Positions 1,832 through 24,974 of a DNA stretch of 26,657 bases are shown piece by piece. Each line of letters starts with the position of its first letter. Position 1 is the stretch's first letter. Origin of the DNA: Candidatus Ethanoperedens thermophilum (GTDB lineage: Archaea > Halobacteriota > Methanosarcinia > Methanosarcinales > EX4572-44); NCBI GenBank assembly GCA_012910725.1, contig WNEG01000087.1, forward strand, positions 13,917 to 40,573, in the 5' to 3' direction. Under the pieces are notes generated by a model. It saw nothing but the letters and a program-made list of their open reading frames with translations. It did not search any database and was not told the DNA's origin. The position numbers were made by a program, and so were the translations under genes.

Positions 1832-2018
1832 CTGCATACAACGCAAGCAGAAAATAATTCTTGATTGCTGCACAACTTCGTTGTGCAGAAATAACTCTTG
1901 ATTGCAACCTGACTTGTAAGTGTAGTAGTCTAACAGCGGCTGAACAACTTCGTTGTGCAGAAATAACTTTTGATTGCAATTCTTGATTGTGCAGCAATCG
2001 AGTGCACAAGAAATCAAG
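1832..2018. repeat. Mosaic palindromic repeat cluster between rpoB'' and rpoB'
   Basis: Degenerate module B at 1832-1850, module A (CTGCACAAC-TTC-GTTGTGCAG) at 1868-1888 and 1940-1960, and CTTGATTG..CAATCRAG modules. Confidence 0.9.
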
Positions 2019-2019
2019 T

Positions 2020-3594
2020 TCATATAAGTTCAACTCCATGGCTTGGCTCTTCACCTTGTGCTTCGAGTTCAGGTGCGTAAGATACTGGTTTTTCTTTAGG
2101 TTCGATCAGGAAGGGTGCAAGAGGTTGTACATCGAGGCTGCTGAATAATAAGTCTTTAACTGCATCCCCATTATCCATGCCAGTTGATATCTCAACCATC
2201 TGCGCAAAGTTTTTAACCAAGCCGCAGTTTGGGCCCTCTGGCGTCTCTGAAGGACATATCCGTCCCCATTGTGTGGGATGCAGGTCACGTGCTTCAAAGT
2301 GTGGTTGTGAGCGGGATAATGGCGATACCACTCTTCTAAGGTGTGAAAGTGTAGCTATGAAATCTGTGCGATCGAGCAGTTGTGAAACGCCGGTACGACC
2401 CCCCACCCAGTTTCCTGTTGCAAGAGAATAATTAAGCCTTTCTGTTAGCACGTCTGAACGTACTACTGTTGAGATGTTAAGTTCCCTATTTCTCATACTG
2501 GCTCTCTCAAGCTGGTATTTAATATCTCGTGTTAAACGGTTAAACGAAACACGAAACAGGTCTTCCATCAAATCACCAGCAAGCTTCAGACGTTTATTGG
2601 CATAGTGATCCTTATCCACTTCATTGCGGCGGTAAAGTGCCAGTTCAAAGCATGTTTCTGCCATTCTGCCAAGGAACTGTGCTTTAAGTAGACGTTGTTC
2701 TTCTTCATTTCCAAGATGAGGTAATAAGTATCGATCAATGATGTAGTTTGCTCTTTTTATCTGGTACTCTTTTAGCTGACCTGCTGCAATCCTGTTACCG
2801 ATCTTTTCAAGAGCTTCTTCGCAGGTTTCAACCTCTGCTTCTTCAAGGTTTTCAAGCATGAATTTCATAATTTCAGGATCATTAGATACTGCAGTTGCAA
2901 TATCCTCGTCGTTCTCAACTCCAAGAGCTCGCATCATCGTTGTAAAATTGATTCTACCTGAAATAGAGGGAAAGGATACTTCAAGTAGATCTTTTTTGTT
3001 CCGTTCAACAATTACAAGAGCACGATAGCCTCTTCGCTGAGAAAATACCTTTGCAACTTCGATTCGCTCTCCATATCGTAATTCAAATTCTACTATGATC
3101 CTATTGGACGCAAGGTCTTCAAGGGTGGTTATCACTCGCTCTGTGCCATTTATTATAAAATAACCACCAGGATCATGTGGGTCTTCTCCCAGTTTGATCA
3201 TTTCCTCTTCAGACATGCCATGCAGGTTGCATGCTTTTGAGTGAAGCATTACTGGCAGAAATCCAATATCTGCTTCCTTTGGCCCAGATTCTTCTTCCTT
3301 ATCAACGATGCTCATCTCAAGCTTCATCGGTGCTGCATAGGTGATGTTTCGCAGGCGTGCATCCGTTGGATACAGCTTGTCGACTGCGCCATCAGCTTCT
3401 TTAACCACAGGCTCTCCGACACTAATTCGTCCAAGTTTTATGTGTACATCTTCTACATCGGTCTCTATAATCTGTTGTTCATCGATAATCTTTTGAAGCC
3501 CGCGACCAAGGAATTCGTTAAACGAATTCGCATGGTGCTGCACTATTTTTTCATGGGTGAAATATGCTTTTGATAAAATCCGGCGATCCAGCAT
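2020..3594 (-). CDS. rpoB2: DNA-directed RNA polymerase subunit B'' (Rpo2N)
   Basis: Motifs GGYFIINGTERV, SHLRRVVSPL and HPTQWGRICPSETPEGPNCGLVKN; GAGGT ribosome-binding site upstream. Confidence 0.97.
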   Translation of the reverse strand: MLDRRILSKAYFTHEKIVQHHANSFNEFLGRGLQKIIDEQQIIETDVEDVHIKLGRISVGEPVVKEADGAVDKLYPTDARLRNITYAAPMKLEMSIVDKEEESGPKEADIGFLPVMLHSKACNLHGMSEEEMIKLGEDPHDPGGYFIINGTERVITTLEDLASNRIIVEFELRYGERIEVAKVFSQRRGYRALVIVERNKKDLLEVSFPSISGRINFTTMMRALGVENDEDIATAVSNDPEIMKFMLENLEEAEVETCEEALEKIGNRIAAGQLKEYQIKRANYIIDRYLLPHLGNEEEQRLLKAQFLGRMAETCFELALYRRNEVDKDHYANKRLKLAGDLMEDLFRVSFNRLTRDIKYQLERASMRNRELNISTVVRSDVLTERLNYSLATGNWVGGRTGVSQLLDRTDFIATLSHLRRVVSPLSRSQPHFEARDLHPTQWGRICPSETPEGPNCGLVKNFAQMVEISTGMDNGDAVKDLLFSSLDVQPLAPFLIEPKEKPVSYAPELEAQGEEPSHGVELI

Positions 3595-3626
3595 ATATTA
3601 ATAACCTCGACTTTTTTTATTTCTCA

Positions 3627-3860
3627 TCAGACAACCAGTCTATATATAGTTGCTTCACCTGCTGTTGCACTTTTTCTGGTTACTTTAATCACATTTCCAG
3701 CACCTGCTTTTATTTCTTTTATAACAGGATCAACAGTTTTAATTTTTGGAAGTTGCTCTTTTTCAATGTTGTATTTTTCCAGAACCAGTGCAAGCTCCTC
3801 ATCACTCAATATTTCATGATTGGGAACCGTATCATGATTTAACAAACTAAACTCTTTCAT
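3627..3860 (-). CDS. rpoH: DNA-directed RNA polymerase subunit H (Rpo5), 77 aa
   Basis: HDTVPNHEIL...LPKIKTVDPV...VIKVTRKSATAGEATIYRLVV. The true start is the ATG at 3860; the longer track ORF runs into the IS element. Confidence 0.95.
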   Translation of the reverse strand: MKEFSLLNHDTVPNHEILSDEELALVLEKYNIEKEQLPKIKTVDPVIKEIKAGAGNVIKVTRKSATAGEATIYRLVV

Positions 3861-5296
3861 CGTACTTGTGCAAGGAGACCCAGTCCGCAAGGGCGGGCAG
3901 GAATTGCGCACACCTCCTGTATAACTCCTTTTGCTCTTTTTAGAAGCGTTAACTTCTTGCTGTTTACTGACGCTCCGATTTGATCTCCAGTGATTGTCCG
4001 AAGACCAAAGTATCCGGAACTCCGTAATCCATGTATAAAACATTCGTTGTTGTTGTATTTCACTTTATCATACCTTCTGAATCCTTTAACTTCTTTCACA
4101 GTATTTCTCTTTAACCTTCCTCCTTTGAGGAGGTTGGCTTTGTATAATGATCGGTTCTGTCGCCTTACTTGTTTGCTGATGATTATGCTATCAGATCGCA
4201 TCTGACCATTACCGCCAGCAATAACAAAAGCATCCGTTGCGTGTGATTTCTCTAATCCAAGTTTGATGCGATTGTATTTTGTGGTGTAGCCATACGTCTG
4301 ATTACAATTCAGCAGATCAACGATTCTGCTTCTCACAGCATTCATAAACGCAGTCGCTTTCAGTGTCTTTTCGGCTTTGCTCTGTATTTCAGGGTGACCG
4401 AACTCTCCAGCTGTCTGATTGCCCTTTGCCTGATTGCACTCGTGACAGGCTATCGTCAGATTAGAGACTCTATCCGAACCGCCTCTTGACCGTGGTACGA
4501 TATGTTCAATCTCCAATGGCACATCCTTTTTGCCGCAGTAAGCACATTTCCTGCCCCACTTTTCCAGCAGGTACTCTCTGACTTCGTATCCTTGCAATTC
4601 TCCTTGTTGGTATTCTATTCCACTGATTTCTGGATTCTGCATCTTCTGGGCATCGAAAGAAGCGACCTCGATAACTATTTTTGTAATCGGAAGAATCTTC
4701 TTCAGTTTCTCAATGAGTTTGATGTGGTTATTCAATTTATGTTGAATGTTCGGTGCAAGCCAGCCTTTTGGGATGCCGCGATTGTTGAAACGTGGTTCTC
4801 TGTGCCACAACCTTGCTCTTCGCGTGCGTCTGTATGTTCTTCGTTTTTCGATGAGTCGTTTGATGTCGGATCGCAGGGTTAATTCGCCAGCGATGAGTTC
4901 TCTGTCGGATGTTACTGTGCTGAACCCGACCGTTGTGTATCCAGCGTCTATTCCGAGTGTTGTGTCCTGCGTATTTTCTTCACAATCCCAAAGCAATCTA
5001 ATCGTGAACGGTGTCTGCTGAACGACCTCTGCTCTACCTGCTTCCAGCAGATGTCTTGCTTTTGCAGGTTTGCATGGCATCAGGGGATTTCCATTCTTGT
5101 TAATCACAAATACCAGCGTATCGGCTTTATGCCCTCCCGCTGGTTGGAGTAAGTGCTCCTCGGAGTTGTTGGAAAGTGTTTTTAAACTCACCACACCGTC
5201 CTTGCCCCTCGGGACTTTTAATGATGGGTCACAGTTGCACCGAACTGGAGCAGTATTCGGTGGTGTGTATGTATTTCTTCTATCCAACTTCTGCAT
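3857..5296 (-). CDS. iscB: IscB RNA-guided endonuclease (OMEGA)
   Basis: PLMP (NPLMPC), RuvC-I GIDAG, Arg-rich bridge helix RRTYRRTRRAR, RuvC-II IEVASFD, HNH CAYC..EHIVP..N..CHECN, RuvC-III HATDA. GGAGG precedes the ATG at 5296. Confidence 0.95.
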   Translation of the reverse strand: MQKLDRRNTYTPPNTAPVRCNCDPSLKVPRGKDGVVSLKTLSNNSEEHLLQPAGGHKADTLVFVINKNGNPLMPCKPAKARHLLEAGRAEVVQQTPFTIRLLWDCEENTQDTTLGIDAGYTTVGFSTVTSDRELIAGELTLRSDIKRLIEKRRTYRRTRRARLWHREPRFNNRGIPKGWLAPNIQHKLNNHIKLIEKLKKILPITKIVIEVASFDAQKMQNPEISGIEYQQGELQGYEVREYLLEKWGRKCAYCGKKDVPLEIEHIVPRSRGGSDRVSNLTIACHECNQAKGNQTAGEFGHPEIQSKAEKTLKATAFMNAVRSRIVDLLNCNQTYGYTTKYNRIKLGLEKSHATDAFVIAGGNGQMRSDSIIISKQVRRQNRSLYKANLLKGGRLKRNTVKEVKGFRRYDKVKYNNNECFIHGLRSSGYFGLRTITGDQIGASVNSKKLTLLKRAKGVIQEVCAIPARPCGLGLLAQVR

Positions 5297-5382
5297 TGTT
5301 TTAGGTGCCTCCTGATCAACTAAGGGATTCTTTAGAAGTCCCTTCCTTTAGTCCTGTTAGGGTCAAGGGAGGGGTAGTTGAC
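3861..5382. mobile_element. Non-autonomous IS200/IS605-family element carrying iscB
   Basis: Left end follows TTCAT and has a subterminal hairpin; right end ..GGGAGGGGTAGTTGAC. Removing it rejoins GGAGG..AAGTAAG to the rpoH ATG. No tnpA inside. Confidence 0.9.
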
Positions 5383-5411
5383 CTTACTTAGGTTTCCTCC
5401 TGTAGCAGAAA
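5115..5411 (-). ncRNA. Putative IscB omegaRNA (5' guide from flank 5383-5411, scaffold starting GTCAACTACCCC at 5382; 3' boundary approximate)
   Basis: Canonical GTCAACTACCCC start, GTCAACTA/TAGTTGAT closing stem and internal hairpins upstream of the PLMP codons. Confidence 0.65.
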
Positions 5412-5485
5412 CGGGCTCGATGGGAATTGAACCCACGACCATCTGGTTAAAAGCCAGGTGCTCTGCCGAACTGAGCTACGAGCCC
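5412..5485 (-). tRNA. tRNA-Lys (anticodon UUU), no intron, CCA not encoded
   Basis: GGGCTCG/CGAGCCC acceptor stem, D arm GCTCAGTTCGGCAGAGC, CTTTTAA anticodon loop, GGTTCAATTCC T arm. Confidence 0.95.
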
Positions 5486-5607
5486 ATATAAAGGGCATGC
5501 GCACAAATATGCAACTTGTTATTATATGTTCACACAAGATCTTGAAGATATCACTGAAGATGCATCCACCTTCCAACATCCTAATCTAATTTAAAACTTT
5601 CTCTACA

Positions 5608-6804
5608 CTATGGCGTTTTTGTCCTGGTGTGTTGTTTCCATCCTTCCTCTTCCACCCTTCGCATGATATGCTTTAGAGGAATGCCGGTTGTTTTTGCTAT
5701 TTTCTTGCAGTCATCAAACTCTGCTGACACATCGAGGATGTGCCTGTTCAGGTCTGTTGCAATCTTCACACCTGATGTATATTGTTTGTTGTTTATGAGT
5801 ATCTGTATTCTTTTTATCGTTCTTCTGGCAGTAAGCCGATGTTTTGCCGGTATGATTCGTACACCAAGACTGCCTGTCTCTTCTATGATGGTTTTTGCAA
5901 GGTGTGAGGAGTTTGATGGTTTTGCAATCACCTGCACGATATGCCCACTTCTGCTTTTTTTAGTGGTAGTAGGTATAATGCACACATCCTTTGCACCTTC
6001 TTCAAGCAATCTATCTATGAGGTTTCCTAATACCTCTCCTGTAACATCGTCGATGTTTGTTTCAATAACTTCAATAGCGTCAGGCATGAGATTGTCTTCT
6101 ACTTCAGCAAGAATTGCCCGAAGAAGGTTGGGATGTTCATATTCATGCTTTCCAGCACCATATCCAATCCTGTGTATTGCTATTGGTGGCAGCGATGCAT
6201 GCTGGTTTGTGAAATGAGAAAGCAAGGCAGCTCCTGTTGGAGTTAGTAATTCTCCTTGAATAGATGTTTGCTGGATTACCAGTTGCGTGTTTCTAAGTAT
6301 CTCAAGCGTGGCTGGTGATGGCAGTGGATAGGTACCGTGGTTTATGCTAACAAAGCCAGTACCTGTTGATATTGGATTGCAGTATATATATTTTGGCTTA
6401 AGAATATCTATTGCTGTACATGCTCCTGCGATATCTGCTATGGCATCGTCACACCCCACCTCATGAAAATGAGTCTCTGGTAGATGTCCATGTACCGTGG
6501 ATTCTGCCTTTGCAAGTATTTCATATACCAGGAGAACGTCAGCTTTTATTCCTGGTGTGATGCTCAACTCCTGGATGTGCTGTTTTACTTCTGCGTATGT
6601 GCGGTGTTTCTGGTGTTGTTGAACCACTGTTGTTCTAACTGCACTAATCCCAGATTTTTTCACTGTGGATACATCTACTTCGACACTTGCGGCAGATTCC
6701 ATCACACCCACCACAACTTCAGGGTCTGCACCAAGGTCTATTAAAGCGCTTACAATCATATCCCCGCTTGCACCAGAATAGGGGTCAAATATCAATACAT
6801 CCAT
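5608..6804 (-). CDS. larC: Nickel pincer cofactor biosynthesis protein LarC
   Basis: FDPYSGASGDM N-terminus, HFHEVG, ELLTPTGAALL, IETNIDD, TTKKSRSG. Confidence 0.9.
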   Translation of the reverse strand: MDVLIFDPYSGASGDMIVSALIDLGADPEVVVGVMESAASVEVDVSTVKKSGISAVRTTVVQQHQKHRTYAEVKQHIQELSITPGIKADVLLVYEILAKAESTVHGHLPETHFHEVGCDDAIADIAGACTAIDILKPKYIYCNPISTGTGFVSINHGTYPLPSPATLEILRNTQLVIQQTSIQGELLTPTGAALLSHFTNQHASLPPIAIHRIGYGAGKHEYEHPNLLRAILAEVEDNLMPDAIEVIETNIDDVTGEVLGNLIDRLLEEGAKDVCIIPTTTKKSRSGHIVQVIAKPSNSSHLAKTIIEETGSLGVRIIPAKHRLTARRTIKRIQILINNKQYTSGVKIATDLNRHILDVSAEFDDCKKIAKTTGIPLKHIMRRVEEEGWKQHTRTKTP

Positions 6805-6830
6805 TGGTGTAACTAAGAAAGTGCTCGAAG

Positions 6831-6842
6831 CATATAGTTTTT
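6831..6842 (-). promoter_or_regulatory. Putative BRE/TATA box for larC
   Basis: AAAAACTATATG about 27 nt upstream of the ATG. Confidence 0.4.
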
Positions 6843-7296
6843 ATGGGTACTAAAAAATGGTACATTATCTCCGAAAAACTTAACAACTTTTTTTAGTTTC
6901 ATTTATTTTTCATTCCAACTCAATTTTCCATCAGCTTAGACCACATTCATAATTTCAGCAAAATCTATAAATACATAGGATATCCTGTGAGAAAATGTCA
7001 GTATCAGGTATTTTTATTTTGCTTATGAACAGGTGCTGCAACTGCTATGGTTTGTATTGTACAAAAATGAGGTAATTCGGAGATACTGTTATAATCAAAA
7101 ATGTTATATATAATTAAACATAACCTGATAAAAGGAGGTATGGTAAAATGTCCTACCTTTATTTGGGAAATGACCAATTGGCTGTCAAAGCAGACGAGGA
7201 TTAGGGGAGGTCAGGTCAGGAGATGGGGATAGAAGGAAGGATAGAGGAAAAAGAAGAAGGCAGGCTTGTGGTGGCTGAGGAGGAGCAGACATAAAA

Positions 7297-7605
7297 ATGA
7301 GAAAAATTATAAAGGAAGTCGGGGAACTGGTAAAGAAGGAGTTCGACGTAGAGGAGGTGATTTTATTCGGCTCTTTTGCTTCCGGGAAACCTTCACAGAG
7401 TAGCGACCTTGACATTTTAGTTATTATGGATACCAAATTGAAGCCTTACAAACAGTCAGCTTTAATCCGCATGCAGTTAGATAAAAAATTGGGTGTGAAA
7501 GTTCCCATAGACTTAATCGTAAGAACGCCTCAACAGATTAACGAAAGACTAAATTTAGGCGATTTTTTTATAAAAAATATATTAACCAACGGAGTTCATT
7601 TATGA
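7297..7605 (+). CDS. Minimal nucleotidyltransferase (MNT) antitoxin
   Basis: LFGSFASG..SDLDILV motif; GAGGAGG ribosome-binding site; ATGA overlap with the HEPN gene. Confidence 0.88.
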   Translation: MRKIIKEVGELVKKEFDVEEVILFGSFASGKPSQSSDLDILVIMDTKLKPYKQSALIRMQLDKKLGVKVPIDLIVRTPQQINERLNLGDFFIKNILTNGVHL

Positions 7606-7979
7606 AAGAACTAACAAAAGAATGGATAGACAAAGCAGAGGGTGATTTTATCGTTGTTAATCATGAATATGACGCTAAAACCCCGGTTTATGATGCAATA
7701 TGCTTTCACGCCCAGCAATGTGTAGAGAAATATATGAAAGCAATATTGCAAGAAAATAATATAAAGTTTGAGAAAGTTCACGACCTTGATCTCCTGTTGG
7801 AAAAATGTAAACATTTCGCGCCTCTTTTAGAAGAGCGCAAGGAGGAGTTGATAGAACTTTCCAGTTTTGCAGTAGAGATAAGGTATCCTGGCATAACGGC
7901 TGCGGAAGAAGAGGCAGCAAATTGTATCTCGATAATGGCGGGGACACGGAAGATTATAAAAGAGTATTTTGAAGAATAA
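7602..7979 (+). CDS. HEPN domain protein (toxin partner of MNT)
   Basis: W..KAE.D, FHAQQCVEKYMKA, KVHDL and RYP motifs. Confidence 0.88.
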   Translation: MKELTKEWIDKAEGDFIVVNHEYDAKTPVYDAICFHAQQCVEKYMKAILQENNIKFEKVHDLDLLLEKCKHFAPLLEERKEELIELSSFAVEIRYPGITAAEEEAANCISIMAGTRKIIKEYFEE

Positions 7980-8005
7980 CCGAGATAGGAAAGGAGAATG
8001 AAAAA

Positions 8006-8143
8006 ATGGGATTTGCATTCGTGAAGATGAATCTGAAGAAATCCTTTGAATCTGAGAAATTAAAGGAAGAGCGACTGCTGGTTGGTTCGGGTGCAATTTA
8101 TGCCGTGGTTCTGGAAGAGGATTTTGAACAGGAAACAGGTTAG
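8006..8143 (+). pseudogene. Possible remnant of a retropepsin-like aspartyl protease gene
   Basis: 45-aa ORF MGFAFVKMNL..LLVGSGAIYAVV resembles the LLVD[ST]GA motif with Asp replaced by Gly and an early stop; AGGAG upstream. Confidence 0.35.
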
Positions 8144-8220
8144 GGGTCGTTATGAAATAACCTCAGTAACTTTGAATCCATAAAAGTTTCCAACCACGAG
8201 ATTAATCTTGTGTAATGTTC

Positions 8221-9543: not shown

Positions 9544-9635
9544 GTGTGCTGTGTCTTCATTGGTTTCATGTACTATATTATTTGGTATAACTTAAATATA
9601 TTTGTTGTGTCTGACTGAATATGTGGCTCTCTCTA

Positions 9636-9877
9636 TAATTCGAGTTGCAAGCACTTTTTCACTCTTCCGGAGGGTCTGGTCATGGTAAGGAAGATTAAAC
9701 CACAGAGAGCACAGAGGATCACAGAGAGTTGTTATTTTTATCTTTTGCTCCCTCCGTGTCACTCTGTGCCCTCTGTGGTTTTCCGAAACCTTATTTCAAG
9801 AAACTGCACAACTTCGTTGTACAGAAATAACATTTCAGATGCAGGAGACTGAGGTGCGTTTATACTTTCATATACGT
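9636..9877. repeat. About 150-bp dispersed element, copy 1 (with an 89-bp nested insertion)
   Basis: Aligns with 16289-16438 apart from the 89-bp insert and 3 extra nt; module A at 9804-9824. Confidence 0.9.
9702..9790. mobile_element. 89-bp MITE-like hairpin insertion
   Basis: Absent from the 16.3-kb copy; AAACC direct repeats (9697-9701, 9786-9790); 19-bp inverted repeat AACCACAGAG[A/G]GCACAGAG. Confidence 0.7.
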
Positions 9878-10028
9878 TCAAAAATATCAAAAAGTCTCCG
9901 GGGTTTTGGTCACTGCAAAAGCGATAGTACACGAAGACCCGAATATGTTCCTCCACCTGGATTCTGCCTGGCCAAAGGCAGGGATGCAAAAGATAAAATA
10001 CATAGCCAAATATTGACAGATAATATTT

Positions 10029-11729: not shown

Positions 11730-11825
11730 TATCGCTGGCAGGGGTGTGGTGGATGTAATGATTGGTATGGCAAAGTCTTTTGAACCATATCATCATTGAA
11801 TTATAGTAGCAAAGGAGGGTATTCC

Positions 11826-13034
11826 ATGAACATCATCAAAAACGTAGAGATTGTGAATTATAAAGGCATCGAGAAGACGCAATTTTCATGCGGTTCTATA
11901 AATATCATAGTAGGTCCGAACAACACAGGAAAATCTTCCATTTTGGAATCAGTCTGGATGGCGGTCGCTTCTTTAAACGACTTTGAAGACAATCTTGAGA
12001 CCCGATTATCAGATATTATCGAAACTGAAAATATCAGACATTTGATACACCAGGGCAAACAGAAATCGACTATAGCATTAGAAATTTTTGAAAATGATAG
12101 GATAATACTGGATTTACTATATTCAAAAAAGAACTATCCTGAAGAAGTTGCTGAGTTTTTTTTAACTTTTATAAATAAAACTCCAAAATTTGATGAGTTT
12201 GAAACTGATTTCCACATGAGCCTATTGGAATTACAGGTTCTTGGAATTAAATTAGATAGGCTATCTGGAAAAGCGGGATTAAAAGAGGAGTTGGATAAGT
12301 TGCTGAAAAGAGTCTCCGAAAACATTGAATCCGTTATCGAAGACTATAGGAGCAGGTTAATCAAATCAGAAAAGGTATTCCTAACCTCAAAAATAAACAA
12401 CAACTTAATCAGCATACGTGCAGTAATGGATGGCTATGCTGATGGAATTTCCATCTTCAACGAAGAGAGCCCCTCCATCCAAAAGATTCCTCTAATTATC
12501 AGTTCCCCTCACATTGATGAGGATGTATCTGAAATTTATAAAAAATTAGTAAATACAAAAAAACTGGCAGAGGTGCTTGAAATCCTGAAAAATAAAATAC
12601 CATATTTTGAAGATATTAGAGAGGTAGATGGTGACTTGCTTGTTTTGCTTGAAAATCTGGATGAACCGTTACCGTTGTCTTTCATGGGAGACGGTTTCAA
12701 AGCTCTTTTAAAGCTATCCTTCATGGCACCTCTGATTAAAAACGGAATCGCCCTCTTTGAAGAGCCCGAAACATCAATGCATCCAGGATATCTTAATATT
12801 TTGGCAAAAGAGATCTTATTAAGCTCTGAATATTCTCAAATTTTTATATCCACTCACAGTTTGGAACTGATAGAGTATCTGCTGGAAAAGGCTGAGAAAT
12901 CTGGCAAGATCGAATCTATAAAGATTTTAAAACTGCGCAGGTTAACAGAAGGCTACATAGAAAGAGAAATCTTCTCAGGAAAAGAGGCGGCTGAAGAGAT
13001 TGAAGTGATTAAAACCGACCTCAGGGGGTTCTAA
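11826..13034 (+). CDS. ABC-type ATPase (AAA_15/AAA_21-like; OLD/PARIS-type)
   Basis: Walker A GPNNTGKS, signature-like SFMGDG, Walker B LFEEPE..HP, H-loop ISTHS. Start set at the ATG at 11826 after GGAGGG. Confidence 0.88.
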   Translation: MNIIKNVEIVNYKGIEKTQFSCGSINIIVGPNNTGKSSILESVWMAVASLNDFEDNLETRLSDIIETENIRHLIHQGKQKSTIALEIFENDRIILDLLYSKKNYPEEVAEFFLTFINKTPKFDEFETDFHMSLLELQVLGIKLDRLSGKAGLKEELDKLLKRVSENIESVIEDYRSRLIKSEKVFLTSKINNNLISIRAVMDGYADGISIFNEESPSIQKIPLIISSPHIDEDVSEIYKKLVNTKKLAEVLEILKNKIPYFEDIREVDGDLLVLLENLDEPLPLSFMGDGFKALLKLSFMAPLIKNGIALFEEPETSMHPGYLNILAKEILLSSEYSQIFISTHSLELIEYLLEKAEKSGKIESIKILKLRRLTEGYIEREIFSGKEAAEEIEVIKTDLRGF

Positions 13035-13035
13035 T

Positions 13036-13710
13036 CTGAATATAATCCTGTGCGAAGGAAAAAACGATGCGTGGTTCTTTGATGAAATCATAAAAGAACA
13101 TCTGGGCGATCATATACACCCTATACCAGATGGAGACATAAATAAACTCATGCGGTTACTGGAAATGAATTGTTTTAATTATATAAAAACTCAATATACC
13201 CTTATCATATTTGGAGATACTGGCAAACCGACAATTATTGAGAAGGTTCTTAGCAGAGTCATAGTTGATACGCTTGGGAAAGTCGCGGATGACATATGTA
13301 TAACAGTTATTCTTGACGACGACGGTATGGGATATTCCGAGCTGAAAAAAGTTATTTCAGACAAATTGAGATCCATTTCAAAGGATAAATCGAAATTCAC
13401 CAGCAATCAGTTTCCTACCCTTGAAGAACACAATGATTCGTTCATCCTGATTCCTCTGAAAGGCAGGGGAAATGTTGAAATACGGCTTTCAACCGTTCCT
13501 GAAAGTTTGGAAAAACAAGTTGCAAAAAAATGCATTGAGGTCAAATATCCTAAAAATCTTAAAATATTAGAGAGAGGACCACATTACGCTCTTGATTTTT
13601 TAGCAATGGAATATTACGATGGTAATAAGGAAAAACTGATCAGAGAAACGTCTGCACTGCTTAAAGATGAAGTATGGGTCACAGATGTCGTAGAACGCGC
13701 AACATCGTAA
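13036..13710 (+). CDS. TOPRIM-like protein partner of the ATPase; probable CTG start
   Basis: Open frame from CTG at 13036 gives (M)NIILCEGKND and a later ILDDDG (DxD); in frame with track ORF 13150-13710. Confidence 0.65.
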   Translation: MNIILCEGKNDAWFFDEIIKEHLGDHIHPIPDGDINKLMRLLEMNCFNYIKTQYTLIIFGDTGKPTIIEKVLSRVIVDTLGKVADDICITVILDDDGMGYSELKKVISDKLRSISKDKSKFTSNQFPTLEEHNDSFILIPLKGRGNVEIRLSTVPESLEKQVAKKCIEVKYPKNLKILERGPHYALDFLAMEYYDGNKEKLIRETSALLKDEVWVTDVVERATS

Positions 13711-16238: not shown

Positions 16239-16288
16239 ATCGCGCTACCTGTTTTATACTACCGCCGCGAAAATTTAAGGCTTTCTGG

Positions 16289-16438
16289 TAATTCGAGTTA
16301 CAAGCACTTTTTCACTCTTCCGGATCTGGTCATGGTAAGGAAGATTAAACCTTATTTCAAGAAACTGCACAACTTCGTTGTACAGAAATAACATTTCAGT
16401 AGCAAGAGAACGAGGTGCGTTTATAATTTCATATACGT
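16289..16438. repeat. About 150-bp dispersed element, copy 2 (uninterrupted)
   Basis: TAATTCGAGTT...GGTCATGGTAAGGAAGATTAAAC CTTATTTCAAGAAA-module A (16365-16385)-AAATAACATTTCAG...TTTCATATACGT. Confidence 0.9.
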
Positions 16439-16703
16439 CGAGAAAATGCCACGATGAACGCAGTCGGTCGGCGCCGGGTCCCACATGGGCAAGGTGTTTT
16501 GTGACCTTGGGTTGAAAGACGTGATGTGGGTGAAGAGTGAAGATAAATGTGCGGTGATTGAAGTTCGTCCGCAAGAACATAACATAGAAATCCCGGTTCG
16601 GACATAACACCAGATAGGCAGGATATGTAAACTCGGGTTCGGATATAGAGCGCATGGGCGATTGCGACATTAGTTTAATAAACATAAACGGAATATGTGG
16701 TAA

Positions 16704-16979
16704 ATGATGACAGTTCGGTTCATTCTCACTGATTACGTAAGCCAGCTATTGGCGCATGCAGTCTACGACAAATTGGATGATGGCACTTATGCCGGACGAA
16801 TTCCAGAATGCAGAGGAGTAGTAGCATTTGGAGCAACCCTACGTGAATGTGAAGATGAACTCCACTCAACCCTCGAAGATTGGATCCTGGTTGGTCTCAA
16901 GCTGGGACATCCTTTACCTATGATTGCTGAAATTAATCTTAACAAGGATATGGCTTATGAGCCCATGGAAGCCCTGTAA
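16704..16979 (+). CDS. HicB-family antitoxin
   Basis: DGTYAGRIPECRGVVAFGATL.EC...L...LEDWI pattern. Confidence 0.8.
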   Translation: MMTVRFILTDYVSQLLAHAVYDKLDDGTYAGRIPECRGVVAFGATLRECEDELHSTLEDWILVGLKLGHPLPMIAEINLNKDMAYEPMEAL

Positions 16980-17187
16980 ACGCCGAGATTTTATCCAGAG
17001 GCTGCGGAAGTTGGGTTTTGATGGACCTTATTCTGGTACACGTCATCAATTTATGATCCATGGGCAGAACCGTATAGCGATCCCTTCCAATGCTGAATAT
17101 TCCGTGCCTCAGCTCCGGATGATGATTCGTGAGGTTGAAGGAATCTTGAATTGTGGTATTACAGTGAATGAGTGGAACAAATTGTGA
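16957..17187 (+). CDS. HicA-family toxin
   Basis: LRKLGF.GPYSGTRHQFM...IAIP motif with the conserved His; start set at the ATG at 16957. Confidence 0.8.
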   Translation: MSPWKPCKRRDFIQRLRKLGFDGPYSGTRHQFMIHGQNRIAIPSNAEYSVPQLRMMIREVEGILNCGITVNEWNKL

Positions 17188-17397
17188 TAGCTAACGTCGC
17201 CCAACATTGTGTACGCGATTCGCACCTCTCGGCGCTCTTCCAACCAATCTTTCTCATCCAAAATCAAATGTAGGTTTTATGTGGTAAAAGTGTATACCTG
17301 TGCTAAAAAAATTATAAAAAAACAGATATCGTTCAGCACATAAGCAAATGCCAACTGGAATGTCTCGGAATTATTCCGATGGTTGAGTGATTGAGAC

Positions 17398-18395: not shown

Positions 18396-18445
18396 GGTTT
18401 TGAGCCGAGAACTCACAAATAATGATTTACCCGGAACTGTATCAT

Positions 18446-18600
18446 TTTCAAGAAACTGCACAACTTCGTTGTACAGAAAACAACCAGTAACTCTCGATTG
18501 CACGAGCACTGCACAACTTCGTTGTACAGAAATAACATTCCAGATGCAGGAGAACGATGTGCGTTTGTACTTTCCTATACGTTAAGAAACTGCACACAAC
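18446..18600. repeat. Partial copy 3 of the dispersed element with duplicated hairpin
   Basis: Module A at 18456-18476 and 18509-18529, shared tail ending 18582, then a restart AAGAAACTGCAC. Confidence 0.88.
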
Positions 18601-18733
18601 GTGAGTAGGAATGAATCTTGGTTATGCAGTAATCAAAACATGTGTCTATGATGGTTTTCAAAAACTGGGTAAACTATTTACTATGGGTTCTATTATGTAA
18701 CTATCATTCTACAACATTGATTTAACAGTATTG

Positions 18734-18796
18734 GTCAACAACCCCGGACCTCCACTTCGCAAAGTTTGGGGCATCAACTGGATTGGAGGTCGAGTT
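18734..18796. mobile_element. Possible orphan IS200/IS605 terminus
   Basis: GTCAACAACCCC...GGGGCATC matches the terminal pattern of the IscB and TnpB elements; no associated ORF. Confidence 0.4.
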
Positions 18797-18893
18797 GTAA
18801 TGTACATGTGGATAAAGGTAGAACGGGTGGGTGAGTGTATGTTTGACAGAGGCAATTTGGAATTGTACTACAAAACATGTGCCCTTTAACAAA

Positions 18894-19157
18894 TCAGTCT
18901 TTATACACGCTCTTACGATGTTTGCAGTGAAGCAATATTAGGACATATTCCTGGTCACAAACTTCATACCGTATTCGATAGTTGCCAATCCGGATACGGT
19001 ACTCATTTTCATATCCTTTCAGTTTGATACACCCACGCGGATGTGGATGCTCCTCCAACATCTTGATCTTCTTAATGATTCTGTCATAGACAGCATCCGG
19101 TAGGTCATCTAGTTGCTTCTGTACTGGCTTTGGGATTACAACCCGGTAGTTCATCAA
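18894..19157 (-). CDS. RelE/ParE-family toxin
   Basis: KLKG...YRIRIGNYRIRY...HRKSVY. Confidence 0.88.
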   Translation of the reverse strand: MMNYRVVIPKPVQKQLDDLPDAVYDRIIKKIKMLEEHPHPRGCIKLKGYENEYRIRIGNYRIRYEVCDQEYVLILLHCKHRKSVYKD

Positions 19158-19402
19158 TTTTTCCTGTGCCGCTGAGCGATGTATTCATCGATAGTCACAT
19201 AGTCTCCTGCCTGATATGCAGTGCGAGCTTCTTGAATTTCAGCTTGCACACTCATGTCTTCTTCCCATGTCTTTTCCTCATCATGCGCCATCTGCTCATC
19301 CAGCAGTTCCCAAAGCCGGAATTTGTCCTTCGTATGCAGTTTTGTAATAGATTTAACTAATGATTCGAAAGGTATTAATAATTCTACACTTTCTTGTGCC
19401 AT
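19154..19402 (-). CDS. Putative antitoxin upstream of RelE
   Basis: 82-aa acidic ORF with 4-nt overlap to the relE-like gene. Confidence 0.7.
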   Translation of the reverse strand: MAQESVELLIPFESLVKSITKLHTKDKFRLWELLDEQMAHDEEKTWEEDMSVQAEIQEARTAYQAGDYVTIDEYIAQRHRKN

Positions 19403-19479
19403 AATCTTGCCTTAAAATTGCCATAAAGACTTCTTGACGTACTCCCCGCAATGAAATTGCGAGGAATCTTTAGGAAGAT

Positions 19480-19668
19480 TCATAGAACCCTCAATGGGCT
19501 CGCCATAGCCCAGTTACTGCTACCCGGAGGCTCACAGTTATTATTCTGTTTAATGTTTGCGACACCGTCCACATCTGCATTCATCGACACGCCCTGATCT
19601 GGACATACGTATAATCCTCGGTGTTTTCTACCGTTTTTGTGGATTACTCCGCATAAACAACATGTTTG
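19480..19668 (-). pseudogene. tnpB: 3' remnant of tnpB
   Basis: QTCCLCG..KNGRKHRGLYVC...MNADVDGVANI (Zn finger + RuvC-III), with no start codon. Confidence 0.8.
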
Positions 19669-19674
19669 TTATAC

Positions 19675-19690
19675 TATATAAGCATTTTTG
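19675..19690 (-). promoter_or_regulatory. BRE/TATA-like motif inside the mini-element
   Basis: CAAAAATG-CTTATATA pointing into the tnpB remnant and right end. Confidence 0.5.
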
Positions 19691-19780
19691 CACGTCTGGA
19701 GAGGCGGGGGCGGGCTATCCCCGCTCTAAAGAGCGAGGCTTGCGCTGCCCCCTGCGCCCCCAATACTGTCAACAAGTTTA

Positions 19781-20434
19781 TTAATTAAGATCGACTCGCT
19801 CACCTGTTGCCATGTACACGACGCTCTCACAGATGTTGGTGATGTGATCACCACTGCGTTCAAGGTAGCGTGCTGCAAAGGTCAGGTGTGATGCGTTTTT
19901 TATCTTTGTTGGATCTTCTATCATATAAGTGATAAGTTCCCGGCGTACCTGATCAAAGAGTGCATCAATTTCATCATCTCTTCTTGCAGTTTGTTTTGCA
20001 AGTTCACTATCGCCACTCTCGAATGCTTGCATGACAGAAGTGAGCATTTCACCACAGATATCTGCCATTCTTGGCAAATCTACCAGTGGTTTTATGTGTG
20101 GTTGTTTGATGGTGGATCTGGTTATCCATGCTATTTCAAGGGCAAGATCTCCTATGCGCTCAAGGTCGATAATGATTTTAATGATTGAGCCTATCAGGCG
20201 GAGGTCCTTTGCCATCGGCTGCTGCAATGCAAGGAGGGCAAAGCACGTATCTTCAATCGTTGCATAGAGGTTGTCAATCTCATCGTCTGAGTTAATCACC
20301 TCACCAGCTTCATCAAGATTCTGGTGTTTCAGTGATGCAATTGCTTTTTTGATATTATCTCCTGCCATGTTGCCCATCCTGATCGTATCTTCTTTCAGTT
20401 TTCGCAGTTGTTGGTGATATTTAGTCCGTGTCAT
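19781..20434 (-). CDS. phoU: Phosphate signalling complex protein PhoU
   Basis: QQPMAKDLR, DLERIGD, DDEID, YLERSGDH.TNICE. Start moved to the ATG at 20434, outside the repeat. Confidence 0.95.
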   Translation of the reverse strand: MTRTKYHQQLRKLKEDTIRMGNMAGDNIKKAIASLKHQNLDEAGEVINSDDEIDNLYATIEDTCFALLALQQPMAKDLRLIGSIIKIIIDLERIGDLALEIAWITRSTIKQPHIKPLVDLPRMADICGEMLTSVMQAFESGDSELAKQTARRDDEIDALFDQVRRELITYMIEDPTKIKNASHLTFAARYLERSGDHITNICESVVYMATGERVDLN

Positions 20435-20449
20435 AAGTCTTATCCACAC

Positions 20450-20625
20450 CTGCACAACTTCGTTGTGCAGAACCACACACTCCGTGTGCGGAACTGCATA
20501 CTGCGTATGCAGAAATTAATTCTTGAATAATTCTTGATTGCGAGAAGCACTGCATACTGCGTATGCAGAAATTAATTCTTGAATAATTCTTGATTGCGTT
20601 AGCAATCAAGTGCAGAGCAATCAAG
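20450..20625. repeat. Mosaic palindromic repeat cluster between pstB and phoU
   Basis: A at 20450-20470, C at 20473-20491, B at 20494-20512 and 20550-20568 (56-bp duplication), D at 20589-20610. Confidence 0.92.
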
Positions 20626-20635
20626 ATGTCATGCG

Positions 20636-21400
20636 TTATCCAAACCTTCCTGTTATGTAGTCTTCTGTACTTTTCTCTTTCGGTTTTTTAAAGAGTTTTT
20701 TTGTCTCATCGAATTCTACCAGCTCTCCGTGAAGGAAGAAGGCTGTGTAGTCTGATACCCTTGCTGCCTGCTGCATGTTATGGGTAACTATGATAATGGT
20801 GTAGTGTTCTTTAAGTTTTACCATGAGGTCTTCGATCTTGCTTGTTGAGATTGGATCAAGGGCACTGCATGGTTCATCGAGGAGTATGATGTCTGGCTGC
20901 ACTGCGAGAGTTCTCGCGATGCACAATCGCTGCTGCTGTCCCCCACTCAAGCTTAATGCCGAGCGGTTGATTCGATCACTGACTTCATCCCACAAAGCTG
21001 CATTTTTTAAGCTTTCTTCAACGATTTGTACAAGTCGCTGCTTGTTTTTTTCACCATGTATTCGTGGACCGTATGCGACGTTTTCAAATATCGATGATGG
21101 GAAGGGGTTTGGTTTCTGAAATACCATGCCGACCTTTTTTCGAAGACTCACCACATCTATATCTTTGTGGTTGATATTTTCATGGTCTAGCAGCATTTCA
21201 CCCTCTGTTCTTACCGTTGGTATCAGGTCATTCATTCGGTTAATACATCGTATGAAGCTGGTTTTTCCGCAGCCTGAAGGCCCTATGAGCGCTGTGATTT
21301 TCCTCCTTGGTATATTCAGGTTGATGTTTTTTAGAGCTTGATTGTCTGCATACCACAGATTCAGGTTTTTAACTGATATTTCGATTTCTTCATGGTCCAT
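20636..21400 (-). CDS. pstB: Phosphate ABC transporter ATP-binding protein
   Basis: [41 protein letters not shown]. Confidence 0.97.
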
Positions 21401-21454
21401 ACGTAGGTCCTCCTTTTGCTCTATCTATATCTATAATTTACGATTTGTTTTTTA

Positions 21455-22312
21455 TTACCCTTGCAGTTTTTTCTGATATTTCCTGCGAAGGATGATTGCT
21501 GCTGCATTCATTGTTAGCAGAACCAAAAGAAGCACGATAATTGCTGCCGATGCAATATTTGCAAATTCTGGTTGAGGTTTACTGATCCAGTTAAATATCT
21601 GTATTGGCATGGCTGTAAAAGGATCAAGGGGCGTTTGCGGGGTGAAGGCTACAAACGTGAGAGCGCCTATCATTATCAATGGTGCGGTCTCTCCGATAGC
21701 TCTTGAAAGCGCAAGGATGTTTCCTGTAAGTATCCATGGCATAGCTGAAGGCAGCACCTGGTACCTGATAGTCTGCCACTTGCTCGCCCCAAGTCCGTAG
21801 GATGCTTCTCGAAGTGATTTTGGTACTGCGCCAAGAGCTTCTTTTGTGGAGATGATAATTATTGGGAGTACCAATAACGAGAGTGTAAGTGCACCTGCTA
21901 TCAGACTTTTTCCAAGTGATAGTCCTCGAACAAAAAGAGCAAGACCAAGGATGCCATAAACGACACTCGGAACGCCAGCCAGATTGAAGATATTAATTTC
22001 TATAATCTTTGTGAGACGTGATCTTGGTGCATATTCCTCCAGGTATATTGCTGCACTCACCCCCATAGGCAGTGCAAGAGCAGCGGTTAGCAATATGAGC
22101 CAGATTGAACCCCAGAGTGCTGATTTTATGCCTGCCCTTTCTGGAAAGCGAGATGGATAGCTGCAAATAAAATCCCAGCTTAACCAGGAAAATCCTTTTA
22201 CAAATATATCAAATAACAGTAAAGCAAGCAGCACGATGCCAGTGATTGTAGAGGCAAAGCAGATAACTGCAAAAAGTTGGTCTTTTCTTTGACGTTTCTG
22301 TTGCAGGTTCAT
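21455..22312 (-). CDS. pstA: Phosphate ABC transporter permease PstA
   Basis: [38 protein letters not shown]. Confidence 0.95.
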
Positions 22313-23665
22313 CCTACTTGCGCAAGGAGACCCCGTCCGAAAGGACGGGGAGGAATTGCGCCCTCCATAGAGCTTACATAGTTTCGTGACATAGTTAACA
22401 TCGGTGAGACCTTGAAGACGATACTAATCAACTGTTTGCCATTAACCAGCAAGAAACAGCAGATACGCAATAGCTTCTTTAAAGAATATCTTCGCGTTCT
22501 GAATGCCACACTTAAATCATTGCCTGATGCCAAATCTTCAAACGATTTGCACCACCTAACATACTTCAACATTCGTGAAACCTCCTTTTTGCCTTCTGAT
22601 ATTGTTCAAGAAGCCCGAAAAGATGTGTGGGCTAAACGCAAGACTGTTAATAATAGATTCAAACGGTGTTCTATCCGACTTAACAAGAGATGGTTCAGGT
22701 TTTTTACCACTGATCGAGCAACCCCCAGCTTCAAGATCACCTACGCTCCACACAAAACTTTTACGATACCCATAGCAATTGATGGTGGTTATGATCGATT
22801 CACCTGTTTTCTCGATGATGGCTGGGTTATCAAAACTATATCCCTTCTCGACAGTAAAATTGCTGTCGCCATCGACAAAGATTTCGAAGTTCCTGCTAAC
22901 ATCAGCAGGTATGTCGTAGGAGTTGATGTTGGTTCGACCACTCTCGCAGCGATAACCATTTTCGACACCCTCGAAAACCGTGTTGTCAAACAACTCTACT
23001 TTGGTAGAGATGTTGCCATCAGGCAACGCAGGATTGCGGATCAGCGTGCTTTGCTTCGGAGCAATGTCGACAAAGGTTCTGATCAAGCGAAGAAGAGTCT
23101 TAAACGGCTTGCTAACAAACAATTCAACTTTGTCAAGACCCGTAGTGGTCAAATTGCTAAAGAAATCGTGGAACTCGCGGTTAAACATAGTGCATCCATT
23201 GCCATTGAGAAACTTACTATTAGAAGCAGGAAACACCAATTTAACAAGACGGCTAACCGAAAGATAAACACGATTCCGTATGCACAGCTCAGAGACTTTC
23301 TTATATCGAACTGTGCCGAGTACGGAGTGTATCTTGATCAAGTTGATCCTTACCACACCTCGAAGTGGTGTCCTCACTGCGGTGCAGTGAATAATGGACA
23401 TGCCACATCTAACTACGCTTTGTATAGATGCAAAGAGTGTGGTCTGGTTGTTAATAGCGACAGAAATGCGTCCCTCGTGGTTGCCATCAAATCGGCTCTG
23501 GTGCGGGAAAATTCTCAAGGTCTCACCAACCTTTTTTCCCAGTTTACCAGAGCTAAAGTCCCTGTAAACGGGCTTTTTCGTCCAGATGATAAGTTTTTGA
23601 GTTGTGCTGTGCATGATATCAGTCCTTTGATGGAAAGCCCCTTCCGATAGGGAGGGGTAGTTTAC
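22313..23665 (+). mobile_element. Non-autonomous IS200/IS605 (IS1341-type) element carrying tnpB
   Basis: Follows TTCAT; left-end hairpin CCCCGTCC-GAAA-GGACGGGG; right end ..GGGAGGGGTAGTTTAC. Removing it restores a TAATG pstC/pstA overlap. Confidence 0.92.
22412..23650 (+). CDS. tnpB: TnpB RNA-guided endonuclease
   Basis: RuvC-I GVDVG, RuvC-II IAIEKL, Zn finger CPHC/CKEC, RuvC-III SDRNA; TTG start after GGTGA. Confidence 0.93.
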
Positions 23666-23682
23666 TACTCGTATACCTCCCG
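23480..23682 (+). ncRNA. Putative TnpB omegaRNA (reRNA) with guide from flank 23666 onward; 5' boundary approximate
   Basis: Inferred from established TnpB biology (RNA overlaps the ORF 3' end and right end); right-end hairpin seen. Confidence 0.5.
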
Positions 23683-24588
23683 GTAGCGTGATCTTATCCA
23701 CTGACTAACCAGGTTCATCCCAAATGTCATGAGAAATAGTACCATACCTATTGCAAATATGGATTTGTATGCGATACTGCCGGCAGGAGTATCTCCAAGA
23801 CTTACCTGCACAATGTAAGCAGTCATTGTTTGTATGCTTTCAAAGATGTTGAGGGTTATATTTGGTGTGGCGCCTGCTGCAAGTGTTACTGCCATAGTCT
23901 CCCCAACAGCTCTTGAAATTGCAAGGATAAACGATGCAAGGATTCCAGAAAGAGCTGATGGCAAAACAACTCTTGTTGTTACTTCATATTTGGTAGCACC
24001 AAGAGCATAAGCACCCTCCCTGAGTGTGCGTGGCACGCTTCTAATCGCATCTTCACTCAGACTTGACACCATCGGGAGTATCATTATCCCAACCACGATG
24101 CAGGCACTCGCGGCATTAAAGATATCTGTTCCTGGTACCAGTTTTCTGATAATGGGGGTGACAAACATGACCGCAAAGCATCCATAGACTACGGTTGGTA
24201 TGCCAGCAAGCATCTCTATTACTGGTTTAACGATTCCGCGTGTGCGTTCATTTGCATATTCGCTTAAATATATAGCACTCGTAAGCCCTATGGGAAGAGC
24301 AATAATGCTTGATCCTATGGCTATAAGTAATGTACCATTAATAAGTGGCAGCACCCCAAAATAGGATGGCGAGTAGGTTGGTGCCCACCTTGTCCCGGTT
24401 AGAAATTCGATGATACTTACATCTCTAAAAAAGGAAACTGTTTCAGAAAGTAGTACCAGCACAATACCGATTGTAACGAAGATGGATATTAATGCGCATA
24501 CAAAAAGATAGCGTTCGATAATCTTTTCCTTTACAGTATTATAGCTATGCACTGCCACGTTTGCAATCCCTTCAGTTGTTGTGTCCAT
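23665..24588 (-). CDS. pstC: Phosphate ABC transporter permease PstC
   Basis: [36 protein letters not shown]. Confidence 0.95.
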
Positions 24589-24636
24589 GCAGGTAGTACT
24601 TTCAACAGAGATAAAGTTGGTGTTTGTGTTATGTCA

Positions 24637-24974
24637 CTGCATACTGCGTATGCAGAACCACACACTCCGTGTGCGGAAACAACTCTCAGTTGCTGTACAA
24701 CTTCGTTGTGCAGAGATAGCTGGTAACCCCAATTCTTTATTGCTGTACAACTTCGTTGTGCAGAAATTACAAGTAACTCTCGACTACGAAATAGTTGAGT
24801 TGCGCAAAGCAATCGAGTGCAGAAAATTACAAGTAACTCTCGACTACGAAATAGTTGAGTTGCGCAAAGCAATCGAGTGCAGAAAACTACAAGTAACTCT
24901 CGACTACGAAATAGTCGAGTTGCGCAAAGCAATCGAGTGCAGAAAAGTAACTCTTGATTGTGCCAGCAATCAAG
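24637..24974. repeat. Largest mosaic repeat cluster, between ccmC and pstC
   Basis: B at 24637-24655, C at 24658-24676, A at 24693-24713 and 24743-24763, three 60-bp units, D at 24953-24974. Confidence 0.93.
24764..24946. repeat. Three-copy 60-bp tandem repeat
   Basis: Rows 24781, 24841 and 24901 are nearly identical with an exact 60-nt period. Confidence 0.95.

Follow-up and report, generated by a model that had tools for sequence, protein, structure and literature searches.

Repetitive extragenic palindromes (REP), the bacterial interspersed mosaic elements (BIME) that they form and the enzymes that go with them are regarded as bacterial, and a published survey saw no RAYT in archaea (PMC6006769). 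For E. coli, Pseudomonas and Stenotrophomonas, with their RAYT/TnpA-REP enzymes, three sources describe short extragenic palindromes in hundreds of copies (PMC2817692, PMC3116915, PMC3733652), and unit types alternating in opposite orientation are the hallmark of a BIME (PMC2817692). DNA mini-hairpins of sequence GCGNAGC or GCGNNAGC are extra-stable, with a melting temperature of ~70-76 °C, resist nucleases and require a 5'-C/3'-G closing pair (PMC13037366, PMC3201870). Here we describe palindromic modules that have traits of both systems. They were followed from a 26,657-nucleotide stretch of contig WNEG01000087.1 (positions 13917-40573 of contig C79 in the source genome; hereafter the window, meaning this whole stretch) to the genomes of Candidatus Argoarchaeum, an archaeal genus associated with anaerobic ethane oxidation that holds several hundred REP/BIME-like units per genome.

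Our analysis indicates that these modules are probably non-autonomous repeats of the REP/BIME kind that act at the DNA level, are restricted to Ca. Argoarchaeum, are still active and spread through a long staggered opening of their targets. They stand outside the bacterial picture by the loop rule of ultra-stable mini-hairpins, by a strict two-class orientation grammar and by a target duplication of ~30 bp.

The source genome (G000) is a 1.25-Mb metagenome-assembled genome (MAG) of 114 contigs with 41% G+C that is 61% complete, and the MAGs of the genus used here are 56-82% complete. A search of the whole source genome for hairpins of the form C-NNN-G with at least 7 paired bases returned 609, among which 451 carried GNA or TNC loops and were grouped in 193 clusters. 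Hairpins of the family are 19-21 nt long and exceed 100 copies per genome, as REP/BIME do. Most of them (421/451) do not lie deep within a long open frame, and the four that were inspected among the remaining 30 belong to frames running over repeat arrays. A previous examination of the window that used its letters alone (the sequence-only reading) had proposed a dispersed, modular, REP/BIME-like palindrome family, and the analysis bears the proposal out. The module types are the following.

Module A: 5' arm GCACAAC or GTACAAC, loop GAA
Module B: 5' arm TGCATAC, loops GAA, GCA and GTA
Module C: 5' arm CGCACAC or TGTACAC, loops GGA and GAA
Module D: 5' arm TGATTGC, loops GAA, GCA, AAA and GTA
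Module E: 5' arm TGATTAC, loops GAA, GCA and GTA
Module F: 5' arm CGACTAC, loop GAA
Module G: 5' arm GCAAAGC, loops GCA and GTA

Their stems fall into two classes, class I with CTG/CCG..CAG/CGG (A, B, C and G) and class II with CTTG/CTCG..CAAG/CGAG (D, E and F).

The family is confined to one genus. With at most one mismatch, the 21-mer of module A occurs in 93-188 copies per genome in all four species of the genus, and it was found neither in the sister genus nor in 26 further genomes of the order. Module E is present in the same four genomes, in one copy in the sister genus and in 0/115 other genomes, and the family as a whole is essentially missing from ~117 other genomes of the order. Public contigs bearing the exact A 21-mer all belong to Candidatus Argoarchaeum or GoM-Arc1 MAGs, with one exception, RPGP01000004.1, filed under the co-cultured Desulfobacteraceae Eth-SRB1. 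This contig is collinear at the BLAST level with Argoarchaeum contigs (contig C85 of G000), and it carries the same 37-bp insertion and 29-bp duplication as the site on contig C40 of the sister species G003 that matches the C85 locus. It is probably a misbinned archaeal contig. No modules were found in viral contigs, no Rfam family matches the modules (the only matches in the window being HEARO and a tRNA), and we found no literature linking Argoarchaeum or GoM-Arc1 with palindromes or hairpins.

We observed that the loops follow one rule throughout the genome, as the sequence-only reading had proposed for the window. Among 444 family stems, the first loop base is G in 412 (A in 31) and the third is A in 427, that is, 93% G at the first and 96% A at the last position, as in the DNA mini-hairpin loop. 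The middle base varies (A 330, G 53, C 40, T 21), the loop-closing pair is always 5'-C...G-3', and a sister species shows the same pattern (n=130). Among tetraloops closed by C-G, the most frequent are GTTA, GCAA, GCTA, GAAA, GCCA, GATA and GTCA with their complements, all of them GNNA. Since these tetraloops fit the DNA rule GCGNNAGC and mostly do not fit the RNA rule GNRA, they favor a DNA reading over an RNA reading. The mini-hairpins d(GCGNAGC)/d(GCGNNAGC) of Hirao and co-workers thus share their loop and closing-pair rule with the modules (5'-C, first G, last A, any middle base). They differ in being a physico-chemical motif known from a few phage or plasmid priming sites and promoters, whereas the modules are a genomic repeat family for which folding is predicted.

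Orientation is ruled within clusters and free between them. Genes were called using a codon-usage model trained on the source genome. The sequence-only reading had noted one shared orientation for the 14 intact copies of the window; genome-wide, the GNA strand in the spacers of tandem genes is sense in 112 cases and antisense in 110. The net orientations of adjacent clusters agree 49 times and disagree 37 times (p = 0.24), the corresponding ratio in G003 is 55:66 over 1.53 Mb, and the four longest scaffolds of G003 (114-245 kb) show continual flips. Because orientation is random across the genome and in G003, the uniformity seen in the window is only local. Hairpins show no preference for stop codons over start codons (111:111); among spacers, 27% of the convergent, 18% of the divergent and 13% of the tandem ones hold them. 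A replication-linked orientation was considered and rejected: across contigs, orientation was uncorrelated with GC skew (which follows the gene strand), and there was no long run of one orientation on the 114-245-kb scaffolds, a weak test as origins are unmapped.

In contrast to this freedom between clusters, neighboring class I modules in G000 always point the same way (129/129; same:opposite, AA 54:0, AC 44:0, BC 12:0, CC 10:0, AB 9:0), and class I and class II neighbors are opposed in 45/46 pairs (AE 0:27, AD 1:12, AF 0:6). The same grammar was observed in G003 (AA 16:0, AB 8:0, AD 0:12, AF 2:10, AE 1:7). As class II stands opposite to class I, every strand of a cluster bears both GNA and TNC loops. 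On the GNA strand, the sequence before module A is typically (A/G)TTATTT, or TT when A comes after another class I hairpin, and the sequence after it is typically TGCTTGCGCAATCAAG.

A pattern search of the window recovered nine A copies with at most one mismatch and, exactly, three B and two C copies where the sequence-only reading had placed them; none were expected, as 100 shuffles gave no match in any. These copies read TTC, TGC or TCC on the plus strand and C-GAA-G, C-GCA-G or C-GGA-G on the minus strand. Some of the A copies belong to a composite of 81 bp that we call Y, made of hairpin A, a linker and the box GTGCGTTTATACTTTCCTATACGT. The six clusters of the window, all of them intergenic, and the duplicated target of the last one are as follows.

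1832..2010, minus strand: cluster 1, degenerate B (1832-1850), A (1868-1888), A with one mismatch (1940-1960) and a pentaloop D (1982-2002)
9795..9880, plus strand: Y element, A hairpin (9804-9824), linker and box GTGCGTTTATACTTTCATATACGT
16356..16440, plus strand: second Y element, A hairpin (16365-16385)
18447..18590, plus strand: Y element variant with two A hairpins (18456-18476 and 18509-18529)
20450..20630, minus strand: cluster 5, A (20450-20470), C (20473-20491), B (20494-20512), B (20550-20568) and D with a GTTA tetraloop (20589-20610)
24615..24636, no strand: left target copy at cluster 6, the 22-bp duplicated target agttggtgtttgtgttatgtca, present as a single copy in the sister species
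24637..24975, minus strand: cluster 6, a 339-bp insert with B (24637-24655), C (24658-24676), A (24693-24713), A (24743-24763), three F-bearing 60-bp tandem units and D (24946-24970)
24976..24997, no strand: right target copy at cluster 6, 19/22 bases identical, containing the TGA stop at 24995-24997 (minus strand)

The shuffled module order that had been noted, A-C-B at 20.4 kb and B-C-A at 24.6 kb, is real, and the B-like copy at 1832 is indeed degenerate. The D copies are also where they had been reported (1982-2002, 20589-20610 and 24946-24970), but their loops are of 4-6 nt (tgcag, gtta, tgccag) and none is a triloop. Likewise, the shared orientation holds for the A, B and C copies and fails for three F-type hairpins that bear GAA on the plus strand. 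These F copies, at 24779, 24839 and 24899 within the 60-bp tandem repeats (CTCGACTA-cGAAa-TAGTTGAG), are opposite to A, B and C, consistent with the rule for class I and class II.

Sister species, which are ~88-93% identical to the window in genes, differ at these sites. Cluster 1, whose modules are joined by AAATAACTCTTGATTG-type linkers and which is flanked by two minus-strand genes, corresponds in three sister species to a spacer with a different module set that includes CCGCACAAC..GTTGTGCGG. At this orthologous site, CCGCACAAC..GTTGTGCGG takes the place of the A stem CTGCACAAC..GTTGTGCAG, and both sides of the stem have changed (CTG..CAG to CCG..CGG). Between pstB and phoU, where cluster 5 is located, the sister species have 11-190 bp of other modules. 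The insert of cluster 6 is missing from all three sister species; it is an insertion with a 22-bp target duplication that takes in the stop codon of the upstream gene, and the TGA of the right target copy is the stop of a cytochrome-c-assembly-like gene.

This turnover extends to the whole genome. When 66 orthologous cluster sites of G000 and G003 were compared, only 8 were of equal length, 39 were filled in both species with unlike content and 19 were empty or nearly empty in one; 58/66 sites thus differ between two species that are ~92% identical. Hairpin density is 362/Mb in G000 vs 164/Mb in G003. No DNA varies more between sister species than the spacers with arrays, which would make the arrays useful strain markers; they are probably also one reason for the many contigs of the MAGs. 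Effects of the modules on host genes are probably incidental.

Furthermore, many clusters are bracketed by direct repeats of unique sequence, 24-29 of 163 in G000 (<1 expected from shuffled flank pairs) and 10-11 of 160 in G003 (<0.5 expected). In G000 the flanking repeats measure 22-44 bp, with a median of 32, and in G003 they measure 29-58 bp, with a median of about 37-38. Inserts made of a single module measure 29-46 bp, mostly 33-37 bp. Overall, the target duplications span 10-44 bp and are mostly ~30-38 bp long. Empty sites in the other species confirm duplications of 33-38 bp on contig C17, 31-35 bp on C88, 29 bp at the G003 C40 site relative to the G000 C85 locus and 16-22 bp in the window, as well as others of 10 bp and 6 bp. 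Some loci have grown into arrays. In the C17 array, a 33-bp unique segment occurs in three copies that alternate with hairpin inserts, the C91 array consists of at least 4 units of a 38-bp segment and a 34-bp insert, and the C95 array extends over 603 bp where G003 has 22 bp. Some inserts have unique tails, for which no donor locus was found in the incomplete G000 genome.

These observations suggest how the modules might spread. The basic unit is ~30-37 bp long, a short A/T-rich leader plus a 19-21-nt hairpin with a C-GNA-G or C-GNNA-G loop, and the two stem classes are put together as mosaics in their fixed opposite orientation. Units would be copied into intergenic DNA in either orientation through a long staggered opening of the target, which would leave direct duplications of 10-44 bp, mostly ~30-38 bp, and arrays would then grow or shrink by more insertion and by tandem duplication or deletion. 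The hairpin may act in single-stranded DNA (ssDNA), be it in the course of replication or repair or through an enzyme that binds it, and in this way drive the copying. The stagger could arise from replication or repair, by template switching or when hairpin fragments are captured at breaks or flaps, or from an integrase with a ~30-38-bp ruler. The copying mechanism is open to direct study, given that Eth-Arch1 is in enrichment culture and that several species-level genomes are available.

Several results weigh against this interpretation. Nearest-neighbor folding gives both strands a similar energy, with parameters that omit the special stability of GNA loops. The excess of one mismatch type on the GNA strand of G000 (G.T 198 vs A.C 61), which would have pointed to strand-specific folding, did not recur in a sister species (14:15); it probably reflects a founder effect or the amplification of one subfamily and was not taken as evidence. 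The length of the duplication is not fixed (0-44 bp), which may mean that more than one process is involved. Finally, no mobilizing protein was identified in these MAGs, which are 56-82% complete.

We weighed four other explanations. In the one nearest to bacterial REP and REPIN (REP doublets forming hairpins), the hairpins would serve as ssDNA substrates for a HUH-Y1 (RAYT-like) enzyme dedicated to cutting them out and inserting them again. We find this unlikely, even though Y1-HUH genes are at hand: Pfam Y1_Tnp identified five intact ones in G000, with intact and broken copies in relatives. After each intact gene comes an open reading frame of the tnpB/iscB type (334-503 codons), which is the ordinary IS605 arrangement, and none has inverted modules on both of its sides. 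In two cases a cluster lies 150-300 bp upstream, which is unremarkable given that 13-27% of spacers hold clusters. The dedicated HUH/RAYT gene flanked by repeats that the sequence-only reading had suggested seeking was thus not found among the five intact Y1 genes of this incomplete MAG, and archaeal Y1 proteins in the published survey belong to the IS200 subclass only, with no RAYT subclasses (PMC6006769). The loops are of the ssDNA mini-hairpin type (PMC13037366) and the opposite orientation of the two module classes recalls BIMEs, but the GTAG/CGTC tag is absent (units start with CTG, CCG, CTTG or CTCG) and there is no strand bias along scaffolds. The left-end and right-end hairpins (LE and RE) of IS605 are GC-rich and of the GGCTTTAGCC type, unlike modules A-F. 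The Y element speaks for such an enzyme, as its insertion is precise at TTGA with hardly any duplication and its end TACGTCAAGAA is similar to the right end of a resident IS605 type that likewise lies beside (T/A)TGA. In the sister genus, a hairpin pair is located inside a tnpA gene. This gene, of the IS200 type, carries GTTGCTTAC-ttc-GTAAGCAAC and CTTGATTAC-gta-GTAATCAAG in its N-terminal coding part, where they split it just before the TPKYR motif, and the genome otherwise has only a handful of such hairpins. A pair inserted in the tnpA frame indicates that modules can hit insertion sequence (IS) elements rather than belong to them. Module insertions carry target duplications of 10-44 bp, whereas HUH transposition makes none; such long and variable duplications argue against a HUH peel-and-paste mechanism and point towards a long staggered opening of the target. 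The lengths of inserts (29-46 bp, mostly 33-37 bp) and of flanking duplications (29-44 bp, with medians of 32 in G000 and about 37-38 in G003) invite another explanation, in which the Cas1-Cas2 of the cell would capture hairpin fragments and integrate them at non-CRISPR sites, duplicating about one repeat length of target. The genome has cas1 and a genuine CRISPR array with a 37-bp repeat and 33-42-bp spacers, loci C17, C91 and C95 show one duplicated unique segment alternating with different hairpin inserts, and off-target spacer integration has a precedent in E. coli (Nivala et al. 2018, cited in PMC7054753). Yet the duplications vary in length (perfect ones 29-38 bp, others 6-15 bp), between the modules of most multi-module clusters there is no duplicated target, the real CRISPR arrays hold no hairpin-derived spacers, the ends of the duplicated segments show no repeat-like motif on inspection, and the sister genus has cas1 and almost no hairpins. 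The evidence that the similarity in length provides for a Cas1-Cas2 link is weak, and we regard this explanation as very improbable. The wider proposal of an integrase-like reaction with a ~30-38-bp stagger, whether by Cas1-Cas2 off its locus or by an unknown enzyme with a similar ruler, appears only slightly less doubtful; if true, the loci where segments and hairpins alternate would be naturally arising CRISPR-like arrays.

Selection at the transcript level was also considered, the hairpins acting in RNA as terminators, 3'-end stabilizers, processing sites or small RNAs. In the window, 4/6 clusters lie between co-directional minus-strand genes with GNA in the sense strand; on the GNA strand, class I hairpins come after T-rich linkers (TTATTT), and the Y element bears a TATA-like box. 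Genome-wide, however, sense equals antisense (112:110), proximity to stop and start codons is equal (111:111), divergent spacers are occupied too (18%) and the Y box is not aimed at downstream genes (19:24). Moreover, the tetraloops are mostly not GNRA, module content is not conserved at orthologous sites and Rfam has no family that matches the modules. A role in RNA seems very unlikely. Least probable is that the palindromes are double-stranded DNA (dsDNA) sites for a dimeric binding protein, nucleoid or regulatory, with their spread being secondary. Perfect intergenic palindromes with a 3-bp center would suit such a dimer, and bacterial BIMEs set a precedent by binding IHF and gyrase (PMC2817692). 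However, at least 7 different stems exist, and the loop rule and the closing pair are all they have in common; it is the loop that is conserved, and a dimer would not read it asymmetrically. Furthermore, the stem change CTG..CAG to CCG..CGG at an orthologous site affects both sides together, which means that pairing is preserved rather than the half-site sequence. The RNA and dsDNA-binding models account for less of the data than DNA-level repeats spread by staggered target opening.

How closely these DNA-level repeats resemble described systems differs from trait to trait. Besides being short, extragenic and numerous, they share with REP/BIME a lineage-specific distribution, a mosaic structure of few unit types in opposite orientation and rapid turnover between relatives. 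They differ by their archaeal host, the lack of a GTAG/CGTC tag and of any RAYT gene found, A/T-rich stems of 8-9 bp, the fixed GNA/GNNA loop, target duplications of 10-44 bp and no bias to gene 3' ends. REP insert without target duplication, whereas the modules are flanked by direct duplications of 10-44 bp with empty-site support. As tag, RAYT and duplication-free insertion all fail, the modules are best described as a REP/BIME-like variant and not as a member of the REP-RAYT system. Nor do they form REPINs, in which two inverted REPs pair into one long hairpin, since class I and class II stems differ (e.g. CTTGATTAC vs CTGCACAAC) and cannot pair with each other. Miniature inverted-repeat transposable elements (MITEs) have terminal inverted repeats and a short fixed duplication, whereas module duplications are long and variable and the ends of Y are unlike each other.

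With IS200/IS605 elements and palindrome-associated transposable elements (PATEs), the likeness lies in single-strand hairpins near the ends and in the TTGA target of Y, which resembles the (T/A)TGA flank of one resident IS605 type. The differences are that the module hairpins are unlike resident IS605 ends, that the hairpins at the two ends of Y are unlike each other and that plain module insertions duplicate a long target. A PATE matches the LE and RE hairpins of a resident tnpA element at both ends and inserts, with no duplication, 3' of a fixed tetranucleotide. As to an identity with the ends of a described IS or MITE, which the sequence-only reading had raised, modules A-F match no resident LE or RE, and Y shares with the resident IS605 type only the TTGA target and an 11-nt similarity at one end. 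CRISPR arrays and off-target integration are alike in their ~66-80-bp period, with a duplicated host segment plus a ~35-bp insert and 3-4 repeats at some loci; the modules differ by a fixed hairpin repertoire in place of foreign DNA, a variable duplication, no leader and no linkage to cas genes. The genuine CRISPR arrays of G000 lie at C43:8971-10872 and C1:1-619, with a 37-bp repeat ending in ATTGAAAC and a second array of ~77-bp period, and cas1 lies at C43:356-1219.

Of the ~50 copies of the Y box, 26 have hairpin A shortly upstream, and tandem Y arrays of 81-bp period also exist. Y inserts precisely at TTGA with a 4-bp duplication. The single A copies at 9804, 16365 and 18509 of the window are parts of Y elements. 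The first of these elements (9795..9880) was inserted at TTCAA/TTGA within the longer repeat X (about 9630-9960), and the X copy of the sister species is uninterrupted. The second forms the left edge of ~1 kb of DNA (16364-17370) missing in the sister species G002 and G003, and the variant (18447..18590) is the left end of a 1.36-kb insertion (18405-19768) that three sister species lack. The Y box was also considered as a mobile promoter and rejected, the downstream gene being co-oriented in 19 cases and opposed in 24.

Repeat X itself is ~130-150 bp long and is found at several loci in all four genomes; in the window it lies at about 9630-9960 and at 16286-16363. Two insertions are nested in the copy at 9.6 kb: one is the Y element, the other a CACAGAG-rich palindrome of 89 bp (9697-9790) with AAACC on its flanks. 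The 18405-19768 insertion also carries a gene for a ParE toxin (18894-19157) and, upstream of it, a small partner open reading frame, and its 19430-19768 portion is a PATE, a 340-bp internally deleted IS605 derivative that has kept both ends.

Other insertions were observed in the window. On the minus strand, an IscB gene (RRXRR and HNH domains, 3857-5296) and its HEARO/omega RNA (5149-5382, 106 bits) form a 1.5-kb insertion at 3868-5382 that is missing in all three sister species and adjoins a tRNA-Lys gene (5411-5486), with ctttcat|cttactt as the empty site. On the plus strand, a TnpB-type gene (22412-23650) with a Cas12f1-like TNB domain belongs to a 1.35-kb insertion at 22313-23659, likewise missing in all three sister species, whose ends and TTCAT target are alike to those of the IscB element. 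A UPF0150 (HicB-like) gene is located at 16704-16979, in the 16364-17370 DNA missing from G002 and G003, and a two-gene module at 11796-13710 is a candidate defense system.

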